A stretch of 40,352 nucleotides of DNA from a virus (IMGVR_UViG_2923302340_000006:1-40352); one strand, 5' to 3'; positions 3,745 to 15,146 are shown, counted from the stretch's first letter. Numbers and translations are program-made. The notes: generated from the sequence alone by a model not told the origin.

Positions 3745-3968
3745 TTTCTGTAGGCTTCGATGGCCTCACGAAACATCTTTTCATCGCCAATAAAAGTGGC
3801 GATAGTGAATTTAGTCTGGATAGCCATAAGTGTTTGATCCATTCTTTGGGACTCCTGGCTGATTAAGTATGTCGATAAGGCGTTTCCATCCGTCACGTAA
3901 TTTACGGGTAATTCGTTCAAGTAAAGATTCGGAAGGGCAGCCAGCAACAGGCCACCCTGCAATGGCAT
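3729..3968 (-). CDS. hypothetical protein
   Basis: 79-aa ORF, overlaps the next gene start. Confidence 0.35.
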   Translation of the reverse strand: MPLQGGLLLAALPNLYLNELPVNYVTDGNALSTYLISQESQRMDQTLMAIQTKFTIATFIGDEKMFREAIEAYRKWRSK

Positions 3969-4047
3969 ATTGCATGGTGTGCTCCTTATTTATACATAAC
4001 GAAAAACGCCTCGAGTGAAGCGTTATTGGTATGCGGTAACGCCGCGT

Positions 4048-12831: not shown

Positions 12832-13213
12832 GCAACAACAGCAAGCTGCAATAAATGCCATCCTCGCAACACCACTCGATAAAGACAAGCCAGTCACCAT
12901 CCGCATTACTGACTACAAGCGCAACCTTGACCAGAACGCAAAATTTCACGCGATGCTGGCGGATATCGCTCGTCAGGTTCAATGGTGCGGCAAATGGTTA
13001 AAACCAGAACAATGGAAGGTTTTGTTGATCAGCGGTCATGCAGTGGCAACAAAACAGGAAGCTGATGTTTTGCCCGGGCTTGAAGGCGAATACGTCAACA
13101 TTCGCGAAAGCAGCGCGCAGATGAGTGTGAAGCGTATGGCAAGTCTTATCGAGTACACAACAGCCTGGGCTATTGGTCATGGTGTCAGATTTACCGACAG
13201 GAGGTACGAATGA
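12803..13213 (+). CDS. ninB: NinB-like recombination protein
   Basis: 136 aa; resembles lambda NinB (e.g. [20 protein letters not shown] vs lambda LDQNRKLWACLGDVSRQVEW). Confidence 0.75.
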
Positions 13214-13386
13214 GACGACAGCGACGAAGTATCACCGACATCATCTGCGAAAACTGCAAATACCTTCCAACGAAACGCTCCAGAAATAAACGCAAGCCAA
13301 TCCCAAAAGAATCTGACGTAAAAACCTTCAATTACACGGCTCACCTGTGGGATATCCGGTGGATAAGACATCGTGCGAGGAAATAA
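13210..13386 (+). CDS. ninE: NinE
   Basis: 58-aa ORF not in the supplied track; [51 protein letters not shown]... matches lambda NinE from memory; ATGA overlap with ninB. Confidence 0.8.
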
Positions 13387-13391
13387 GGGGA

Positions 13392-13505
13392 TTGACGCGA
13401 TGATTTATCCGGGGCTATATTCCTCACACGCCAGCAAAATCTGGCGTCGGGATTGGCATCCCGGATAGAAACCGCGACAGATACACGCCGCGAGCGTGTT
13501 TTTTA
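13392..13505 (+). promoter_or_regulatory. candidate promoter + structured leader/sRNA + intrinsic terminator
   Basis: -35 TTGACG (13392..13397), -10 TATATT (13416..13421); hairpins 13430..13445 and 13447..13464; terminator acacgc-cgcga-gcgtgt + T-run (13483..13505). Confidence 0.45.
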
Positions 13506-13665
13506 TTGTCGTATGCACGCGCACATCTGAATTATGGTGGGCTGTGTGGGGGCGGAGAGATCCGCGCCGGTCGGTTTCCCGGTTATGCCAACCCTGCACA
13601 GTTCACCACCAGATGATTGGCATCGTCGGTGGTGGGTTATTTAGAAACCACCAGAGGGCGTCATT

Positions 13666-14349
13666 ATGACAACTCAAATCTCTGTTGAAACTCTCTCCCC
13701 GATCACCCATAACCAGATACCTGTTATTACCACTGAACTTTTGGCGCAGCTTTACGGCACAGAAGCGATTCGCATTCAGCAAAATCACGCCAGAAACGCT
13801 GAACGTTTTATTGAAGGTAAGCATTTTTATAAATTAGTGGGCGATGAGCTTAGAGGTATGAAGCACAGACTATCTTTAAGCGAGTCTGTGAAAATTGCCC
13901 GCAACGTTCGCTCTCTCATCCTCTGGACAGAACGCGGCGCAGCCCGTCACGCCAAAATGCTCGAAACCGATCAGGCGTGGGATGTGTTCGAAAAACTGGA
14001 AGACTGCTATTTCAGGCAGTGCAAGAAAAATACTGGCAAACAAGAGAAGAGCACCAACGAGCTTTCCGCAAAAGAAGCAAACAGCCTTGTATGGTTATGG
14101 GATTATGCCAACCGCTCACAGGCATTATTCCGCGAACTGTATCCGGCATTAAAACAAATTCAATCGAACTATTCCGGCAGATGCTACGACTACGGTCATG
14201 AGTTCTCGTATGTTATTGGAATGGCAAGAGACGTTTTAATAAACCACACACGAGATGTTGATATCAATGAGCCAGACGGACCAACAAATCTTTCCGCATG
14301 GATAAGGCTTAAGAACAAAGAATTACCTCCTTCACTGCATCGCTACTGA
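13666..14349 (+). CDS. antirepressor-like protein (ORF6N-type N-terminal domain + C-terminal domain shared with Ant)
   Basis: 227 aa; N-terminal segment resembles ORF6N domains; C-terminal ~100 aa nearly identical to the C-terminus of the ant product (35542..36420). Confidence 0.7.
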
Positions 14350-14400
14350 CAATTGACAACTTAACAAACCCAGCTTCGGCTGGGTTTTTTATTGCTGAAT
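14038..14400 (+). repeat. direct repeat copy A (~340 bp, ~95% identical to 36112..36445)
   Basis: 3' coding end of the ORF6N-type gene plus its terminator. Confidence 0.85.
14369..14391 (+). terminator. intrinsic terminator
   Basis: cccagc-ttcg-gctggg followed by TTTTTT. Confidence 0.8.
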
Positions 14401-14417: not shown

Positions 14418-15146
14418 ATGACAATGAATGAGCTGATAAATAACAATGCCATCAAAATGACAAGCATTGAAATCGCTGAGTTGGTGGGAAGCCAACACGG
14501 TAATGTCAGAATATCAATAGAACGTCTGGCAAAGCGTGGGGTGATTCAACTTCCTCCAATGCAAAAAGTTGAAAATAAACAAACAATTAGCCCTAACAAA
14601 TTCACAAGCGTGTATATATTCGAAGGCGAACAAGGTAAGCGCGATAGTATCATTGTCGTCGCCCAGTTGTCGCCAGAGTTCACCGCTCGCCTTGTTGACC
14701 GCTGGCGAGAACTCGAAGGGGCAACCGCGAAAATCCCACAAACCTTCTCTGAAGCATTGCGCCTCGCGGCTGACCTTGAAGACCAGAAGGCTGAACTGGA
14801 GAAACAGCTTGCTCTCGCAGCACCTAAAGTTGATTTTGCCGATCGCGTTGGCGAGGCCAGCGGAATTTTGATTGGAAACTTTGCAAAGGTTGTTGGAATT
14901 GGTCCAAACAAACTGTTTGCGTGGATGCGCGATCACAAAATCCTTATTGCTTCAGGTTCCCGGCGCAATGTGCCAATGCAGGAATATATGGATCGCGGCT
15001 ATTTCACAGTGAAAGAAACAGCGGTCAACACAAATCACGGAATACAGATATCGTTCACCACAAAAATCACCGGGCGTGGTCAACAGTGGCTGACCAGAAA
15101 GCTGCTCGATAACGGAATGCTGAAAGTAACAGGGGAGGCTGCTTAA
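14418..15146 (+). CDS. Rha-family regulator / antirepressor with KilA-C-like C-terminal domain
   Basis: 242 aa; N-terminal Rha-like segment ([14 protein letters not shown]); C-terminal Ant-like domain. Confidence 0.65.

Follow-up and report, generated by a model that had tools for sequence, protein, structure and literature searches.

A predicted C4-type antisense-RNA immunity cassette upstream of an antirepressor-like gene in the nin region of a lambda-like prophage

The cassette between ninE and the antirepressor-like gene

A 279-bp gap (positions 13387-13665) separates ninE (13210-13386) from an antirepressor-like gene (13666-14349) in the 40,352-nucleotide stretch of viral DNA analyzed in this study, referred to below as the window, and the gap holds the whole of an element that we identify, from its sequence and that of its homologues, as a putative immI-type antisense-RNA immunity cassette in the nin region of a lambda-like prophage. 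The cassette is homologous to c4-icd-ant of phages P1 and P7 and to isrK-orf45(STnc1160)-anrP of Salmonella Gifsy-1. The regulatory RNA module in the gap is real and looks functional, and the system to which it belongs is already known. An Rfam scan of the whole window, a search that had been suggested in a preliminary description of this DNA, placed three families above their gathering scores in the gap, isrK, c4-a1b1 and C4, each matched over its full length on the + strand and following one another in the order expected. The DNA around the cassette is ~96% identical to lambda O, P, nin, Q and R, and the C4-type cassette takes the place of the ninF region. A lambda cIII thermoregulator RNA element (3930-3988, - strand, 88.5 bits in Rfam) fits a lambda-like early region.

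The features of the cassette, all on the + strand, begin with a sigma-70 promoter (13392-13421) that was already recognized in the preliminary description and consists of the -35 hexamer TTGACG (13392-97), an 18-nt spacer and the -10 hexamer TATATT (13416-21), with 10 of 12 consensus matches. A motif scan found one promoter-type match in 1.6 kb against 1.8 expected, which is not above chance, so that an argument for significance from the scan alone was rejected and the case for the promoter is one of homology. Both TTGAC and TATA.T are invariant in an alignment with homologues from P1, E. coli, Stx phages and an Actinobacillus phage, and the aligned P1 hexamers carry the annotation P1c4/P51b. 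The window promoter is the positional homologue of P1 P1c4/P51b and of Gifsy-1 PisrK, the deletion of which kills transcription in Gifsy-1 (from 280 to 3 Miller units; PMC4825925 Table 1A).

The region from the start site to the terminator corresponds to an IsrK-like short RNA of ~77 nt (13428-13504), which carries the sites designated a1 and b1 below and matches the Rfam isrK model (RF01394) over its full length (model positions 1-77 of 77) with 80 bits against a gathering score of 50. This agrees with the earlier idea of a small RNA in the gap, and the IsrK-like RNA combines such a covariance-model score with a promoter of its own and an intrinsic terminator, as expected for a member of the IsrK family. 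The c4-a1b1 match (RF03163; 52.4 bits against a gathering score of 46.7) covers 13415-13467 and lies 69 nt upstream of C4. Two short hairpins, also noticed previously, were confirmed at 13428-13447 and 13448-13463. The first, seen both in the fold and as an inverted repeat, has the arms ACGCCAG and CUGGCGU around a CAAAAU loop and shows changes on both sides in 6 of its 7 pairs among 46 homologues; the second, seen in the fold, holds a1 in its loop. The terminator claimed to lie about 80 nt downstream is present at 13483-13504 (stem 13483-13499, loop CGCGA, T run 13499-13504), and by a strict rule a terminator was found at this position in 36 of 48 family classes. In Gifsy-1 the matching terminator ends IsrK, with some read-through (PMC4825925). 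The word attenuator, which had been proposed for the element, is only loosely right: the short IsrK-like RNA is a product of the terminator, but the antirepressor is most likely controlled by antisense occlusion of its ribosome-binding site (RBS).

All of the parts listed in the preliminary description are present, but the central one, lying between the two copies of a repeated 10-mer, was overlooked. It is a C4-type antisense RNA of 75 nt with a tRNA-like fold (13536-13610), which matches the Rfam C4 model (RF01695) at 13530-13613 with 68.2 bits (gathering score 45; model positions 1-87 of 87) and the ends of which were set by alignment with the annotated C4 of P1. A closing stem of 16 bp (13536-51 with 13592-607) surrounds hairpin 1 (13552-65) and hairpin 2 (13566-83) and is followed by the 3' tail ACC(A), and the minimum free energy fold reproduces this architecture of a long closing stem around two hairpins. 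Folding and covariance analysis across relatives, as had been recommended, supported the helices by compensatory changes, which occur in 15 of the 27 consensus pairs; the C4 stems were 99-100% paired in 46 homologues, versus ~40% when the partners were slid by 1-3 columns. ARAGORN called 13536-13610 neither a tRNA nor a tmRNA. The AAUUAU/GGUGGG context at the 5' end and the ACCA 3' tail are conserved, and by analogy the 5' end is predicted to be cut by RNase P after AAUUAU. Citron & Schuster (1990) are said to have described the C4 of P1/P7 as an RNase P substrate and/or ant repressor. C4 is listed as an RNase P substrate (PMC11143913), and the C4 of P1/P7 represses its downstream gene, ant (PMC12197685). 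The sole long unpaired stretches of the window C4 are b' (CGGTTTC, 13572-13578), which forms the hairpin-2 loop, and a' (ATGCCAA, 13585-13591), which is a single-stranded linker leading directly into the 3' strand of the closing stem; their probabilities of being unpaired in the full transcript ensemble are 0.96 and 0.97, respectively.

The gene that follows the gap (13666-14349, + strand) encodes a protein with an N-terminal ORF6N and a C-terminal P22AR domain (Pfam), which matches PHROG 377 ('anti-repressor Ant') at 1e-82. Its N-terminal 127 aa are 66% identical to Gifsy-1 AnrP/STM2616, and with this identity and its ORF6N domain it is the AnrP-type controlled gene expected of an IsrK system. 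A strong terminator hairpin of 9 bp (14366-14387, + strand), composed of AAACCCAGC, TTCG and GCTGGGTTT, preceded by an A run and followed by a T run, lies between this gene and a second antirepressor-like gene (14418-15146) with an ANT/KilAC domain, and is probably the 3' end of the C4-controlled unit. Because this strong terminator intervenes, the second gene is probably outside C4 control. The element had been proposed to control the downstream antirepressor-like genes, in the plural; control of the first of them is borne out by its position, but the plural is doubtful.

Pairing sites and their covariation in relatives

There are exactly two copies of the 10-mer GATTGGCATC in the whole 40-kb window (13451-13460 and 13615-13624), the duplication having been recognized previously with the second copy placed one base too low (13614-13623). 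The core of the first copy, a1 (TTGGCAT, 13453-13459), lies in the loop of the hairpin at 13448-13463, and the core of the second, a2 (TTGGCAT, 13617-13623), lies 6 nt past the 3' end of C4, within the distal hairpin at 13604-13634. A further repeat, TAGAAACC (13466/13642), had been missed and was found by a repeat search, which independently recovered the a and b sites as inverted and direct repeats. Of the b sites, b1 (GAAACCG, 13468-13474) is complementary to b', and b2 (GAAACC, 13644-13649) ends 16 nt before the ATG at 13666 and 4 nt before the Shine-Dalgarno sequence (SD) GAGGG (13654-58), to which it is adjacent. Complementarity is complete at all four contacts (a'-a1 7/7, a'-a2 7/7, b'-b1 7/7 and b'-b2 6/6). 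In most of the family a1 lies ~82 nt upstream of C4, and the start-to-start spacing from a to b is 15 and 27 nt in the window versus 14 and 29 nt in P1. By itself the 10-mer repeat is only mildly unusual, an exact 10-mer repeat in 279 nt turning up in 2.9% of shuffles and, among segments of equal size taken from this sequence, in 22 of 287; its weight derives from its complementarity to a third element and from covariation.

The distal hairpin was correctly described as having a 7-bp stem, in which CACCACC (13604-10) pairs with GGTGGTG (13628-34), although the fact that its 5' arm is the last 7 nt of C4 escaped notice. GGUGGUG (13628-34) can pair either with this 3' end of C4 (13604-10) or with CCACCA beside b2 (13648-53). 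It is possible that the leader at 13630-13653 is a structural switch that depends on whether C4 is folded in place or cleaved off.

For the family analysis, viral contigs were pattern-scanned for AATTATGGTGGG...CCACC and the few chance matches were removed, which left 107 instances. These fall into 48 classes, among which 18 a' 7-mers and 32 b' loops are represented. Complementarity between cognate and non-cognate partners was then counted at fixed positions. At a1 it was found in 46 of 48 cognate pairs compared with 61 of 2010 non-cognate pairs (3.0%), and at a2 in 48 of 48 compared with 18 of 2010 (0.9%). The corresponding numbers were 36 of 48 versus 143 of 2214 (6.5%) for b1 and 45 of 48 versus 136 of 2214 (6.1%) for b2. 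Pair changes were counted in a MAFFT alignment of 46 modules, in which the a1-a' helix had changes on both sides in 6 of 7 pairs, with 88.8% of cells paired, and the a'-a2 helix in 5 of 5 core pairs. The observed covariation score was reached by none of 500 shuffles, and controls slid by 1-3 columns were ~40% paired as against 96%. In the family as a whole 2-16 nt separate the end of b2 from the start codon, and in essentially all classes b2 either overlaps the SD of the following gene or lies directly against it. The same b' loop was found in the sample with up to three different a' types.

The window itself provides an example of coordinated change. E. coli prophages that are 96-97% identical to it across the module have TTGGCGT at a1, ACGCCAA at a' and TTGGCGT at a2, and at the three corresponding positions, 13458 (a1), 13586 (a') and 13622 (a2), the window has A, T and A where its nearest E. 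coli relatives have G, C and G. The a' of the window (ATGCCAA) recurs in two further C4 modules from viral contigs, the b' loops of which are different, and both of these modules have TTGGCAT at a1 and a2. These were retained from a scan for the a' type of the window with CCGGTTATGCCAACCC, in which 6 of 9 matches arose by chance in unrelated coding sequence and were dropped. The coordinated change at three sites, together with the modules of different b', favors RNA-RNA pairing over a conserved protein motif, and it argues for the repeated 10-mer being a C4 base-pairing site, as read from the sequences, and not a protein-binding site.

Related systems and a possible mechanism

The closest characterized relative is isrK-orf45(STnc1160)-anrP of Gifsy-1 (PMC4825925), which is co-linear with the window and can be aligned with it base for base from the promoter through ACGCCAGCAAAATCTGGCGTCGGGATTGGC and AATTATGGTGGG to the antirepressor gene. 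The Gifsy-1 record was taken by accession, the search of phages with the Rfam IsrK consensus having missed it. Common to both are the promoter, the IsrK 5' hairpin, the a1 hairpin, the terminator, AAUUAUGG, the C4-fold RNA, the a2 hairpin and b2, followed by an SD (GAGGG in the window, GGAGGG in Gifsy-1) and by genes that begin with the same protein sequence. In view of this co-linearity the Gifsy-1 numbering transfers directly: G28 of IsrK is 13455 and positions 31, 159 and 162 are 13458, 13586 and 13589, so that two of the positions at which the window differs from its E. coli relatives, 13458 and 13586, are G31 and C159 of the Gifsy-1 study. What that study calls orf45 is the frame from the conserved AUG of AAUUAUGG through C4, a2 and b2. 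The processed RNA STnc1160 comes from read-through, downstream of IsrK (PMC4825925), and by alignment this stable RNA would correspond to C4; neither C4 nor P1 is mentioned in Hershko-Shalev et al. 2016 (PMC4825925). The two loci differ in their specificity alleles (a' AUGCCAA and b' CGGUUUC in the window, a' ACGCCAA and b' CGGUGAU in Gifsy-1), in the C-terminal domain of the protein, which is P22AR in the window and differs from that of AnrP, and in position, the window locus lying between ninE and ninG, upstream of Q, and the Gifsy-1 locus just downstream of antQ. In addition, Gifsy-1 orf45 has 45 codons and an AUGA overlap with anrP, whereas in the window the ORF from AUG 13534 encodes 36 aa and ends at 13644, 22 nt upstream of the antirepressor gene. 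Gifsy-1 also has IsrJ after the gene, whereas an Rfam search past the antirepressor gene of the window gave nothing near the gathering score for an IsrJ homologue and there is a terminator there instead.

The P1 record is annotated in the order promoter P1c4/P51b, a1, b1, C4, a2, b2 and icd, with a' (CUGUCAA) just before the 3' strand of the closing stem and b' (CACUAAC) in the hairpin-2 loop. The window and P1 immI are alike in the order a1-b1-terminator-C4(b'..a')-a2-b2-SD, in near-equal spacing, in the tRNA-like fold and in the aligned promoter hexamers. In P1/P7 as in the window b2 lies at the RBS of the first downstream gene, and specificity conferred by a few a'/b' bases is the basis of P1/P7 heteroimmunity. 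There are also differences. Between C4 and the antirepressor gene of the window there is no icd, the antirepressor-like ORF following b2 directly, and no similarity was found between the 13666-14349 protein and P1 Ant1. The post-b1 terminator of the window is a clean intrinsic one, unlike that of P1/P7 immI; an operon behind a C1 operator (Op51) is a feature of P1, and the host element is a lambdoid prophage in the window versus a P1-type plasmid prophage. The CI RNA of P4 is, by description, likewise a small RNA processed from the leader that it controls, with complementary sites up- and downstream, and the Gifsy-1 authors name IsrK a structural homologue of P4 seqA (PMC4825925). However, CI acts on its targets seqA and seqC by premature transcription termination of replication genes, and not by blocking the RBS of an antirepressor.

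We consider it likely, by analogy with these systems, that in the window C4 occludes the RBS of the antirepressor and that the terminated IsrK-like leader acts as its cognate decoy. Transcription would start at ~13428 from the promoter at 13392-13421, and many transcripts would end at 13483-13504 to give the ~77-nt IsrK-like RNA showing a1 (UUGGCAU) and b1 (GAAACCG), while read-through transcripts would carry the tRNA-like C4 precursor. By homology, RNase P would cut this precursor after AAUUAU to give the ~75-nt C4 (13536-13610), the a' (AUGCCAA) and b' (CGGUUUC) of which would pair with a2 (13617-23) and b2 (13644-49), which lie in the antirepressor mRNA leader. Since b2 ends 4 nt before the SD, the C4-leader duplex would bar ribosomes and the ORF6N/P22AR antirepressor would not be made. 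For the C4 of P1/P7, Biere et al. (1992) reportedly found Rho-dependent polarity after the translation block, the P1 message left untranslated being terminated by Rho. Conversely, the short IsrK-like RNA, when abundant, would titrate C4, or a'/b' in the long transcript, and antirepressor translation would be switched on; this decoy step, like processing and repression, is carried over from the homologues. Occlusion of the SD by the b2 duplex is plausible in the window and less direct than in P1 and Gifsy-1, in both of which b2 overlaps the SD. When C4 was cofolded with IsrK or the leader in RNAcofold no a/b duplex was obtained (ddG 0 to -2 kcal/mol), a result that was expected and is uninformative, as a kissing contact made by a multiloop or hairpin loop is a pseudoknot and this nested algorithm cannot form one. 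In Gifsy-1, co-expression of STnc1160 left IsrK toxicity unrelieved (PMC4825925), which a pure decoy model does not predict and which counts against such a model.

A broader reading, which we offer tentatively and doubt slightly more than we believe, is that the leader and C4 constitute an RNA-only three-site switch (decoy a1b1, repressor a'b' and target a2b2) with combinatorial seeds that give each prophage a private immunity code, and that the rarer AUGCCAA code insulates the antirepressor of the window from ACGCCAA-type C4s. The AUGCCAA code is indeed the rarer of the two, with three distinct modules in viral contigs and none among the best-matching complete E. coli genomes. If this reading is true, the code of the window, made by a coordinated three-site change, provides insulation from the common ACGCCAA-type C4s of co-resident Stx and lambdoid prophages. 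It would also reconcile two literatures that do not cite each other, that of P1, in which C4 represses, and that of Gifsy-1, in which IsrK activates.

The strongest competitor to C4 occlusion, and one that we regard as rather unlikely, is that the mechanism published for Gifsy-1 by Hershko-Shalev and co-workers applies as it stands and that a processed antisense repressor is unneeded. In Gifsy-1, PisrK drives anrP transcription and IsrK in trans lifts anrP translation >100-fold (PMC4825925); a cis helix between a1 and a' is proposed to lock the mRNA in an inactive form until IsrK in trans opens the RBS of the small ORF and translational coupling activates the antirepressor. In its favor are direct experiments with native gels, compensatory mutants, 30S footprinting and a tagged Orf45 (PMC4825925) in a locus that aligns base for base with the window. 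The AUG of the small ORF (13534) is conserved, and a1 is no less complementary to a' than is a2. However, the ORF of the window stops short of the antirepressor ATG and its second AUG is missing, and across the family the length of the ORF is very variable, with stops within C4 in 8 classes (after 14 codons in P1). The authors themselves report that nucleotides are conserved and amino acids variable (PMC4825925). The mechanism also leaves out a2 and b2, the covariation of which with a' and b' is as tight as that of a1 and b1. Finally, the a1 mutations G28A and G31A and the a' mutations C162U and C159U pair physically (PMC4825925), and yet in the double mutants G28A/C162U and G31A/C159U the fold was regained and repression was not (224-327 versus 4 Miller units; PMC4825925), an outcome that would fit a requirement for a' to match a2 as well.

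It is improbable that the IsrK-like RNA is mainly a trans-acting, Hfq-dependent regulator of host mRNAs for which the cis locus is secondary. The Rfam family description is that of an Hfq-binding RNA, and IsrK is highly expressed in all tested conditions in Salmonella prophages (PMC7067206), but there is no known host target, the variable segments of the RNA follow the cognate C4 and not host sequence, and the toxicity of Gifsy-1 IsrK requires an intact cis locus (PMC4825925). Least credible is the earlier suggestion that the duplicated 10-mer is a recognition determinant for an RNA- or DNA-binding protein: two identical copies are indeed shown in hairpin loops and Rfam lists IsrK as Hfq-binding, but the repeat alone is weakly non-random, its core TTGGCAT is the exact Watson-Crick complement of ATGCCAA in C4 (13585-91), and in homologues at least 18 core sequences occur with all three sites changing together, where a protein site would be conserved or would covary with its protein.

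Prophage context, annotation and distribution

A complete P22-type immI region is present at 34978-36420 in the same window, with a mnt-like gene (34978-35217, - strand), arc (35291-35479, + strand), the sar antisense RNA (35474-35540, - strand; 70 bits in Rfam) and ant (35542-36420; Bro-N and P22AR_C domains). The last 104 aa of this P22-type Ant are 95% identical to the C terminus of the 13666-14349 protein. The shared C-terminal domain indicates that one prophage has two antirepressors, each under a different kind of antisense RNA. In both systems an antisense RNA restrains an antirepressor, but P22 sar is a cis-antisense RNA from the opposite strand, whereas C4 comes from the same strand as its target and recognizes it by two short seeds.

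An ORF of 57 aa (13496-13669), with a GTG start in the terminator and a stop that overlaps the ATG at 13666, covers the terminator, C4, a2 and b2 and matches PHROG 20442 ('unknown function', 8e-41). This frame ends in AUGA and has no conserved AUG, the nearest relatives having ACG in place of its in-frame ATG at 13613. The ORF is probably an artefact of gene calling over conserved RNA. We also rejected orf45 as a conserved coding gene, as neither its length nor its frame is conserved in the family. In 33 of 44 classes the conserved AUG of AAUUAUGG is separated from the downstream start by a number of nucleotides divisible by 3 (129, 132, 135, 138 or 141 nt), which amounts to 5 of 12 distinct distances in frame, the classes being related and the lineages non-independent; in 20 of the 33 in-frame classes the frame is open from C4 into the downstream gene.

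The module was found in 550 phage records, mostly of Stx-converting phages. Of 5426 complete E. coli genomes, 751 contain it, some in as many as four copies, and the best identity among them is 97.1%. No RNA feature was annotated under the module match in the 15 E. coli records listed or in the two regions opened, and in phage records small 'hypothetical proteins' are annotated across the RNA. In four viral contigs two or three complete C4 modules occur in tandem, ~655 bp apart (L017, 4675-5418; L018, 3663-4403; L031, 9712-11108; and L074, 7841-8578). The a'/b' combination differs from module to module, and every module is followed by a short gene, which makes each tandem an array of antisense-controlled cassettes carried by one phage.

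Recognition of the cassette matters mostly for annotation, and what remains of value beyond the annotation correction is the specificity-code and decoy reading. The a'/b' code would predict which co-resident prophages silence each other's antirepressors, and prophages that share a code could do so in trans. By deciding whether the antirepressor is produced, the cassette would determine whether a lambdoid prophage of this kind, a close relative of Stx-converting phages, remains silent or undergoes SOS-independent induction.
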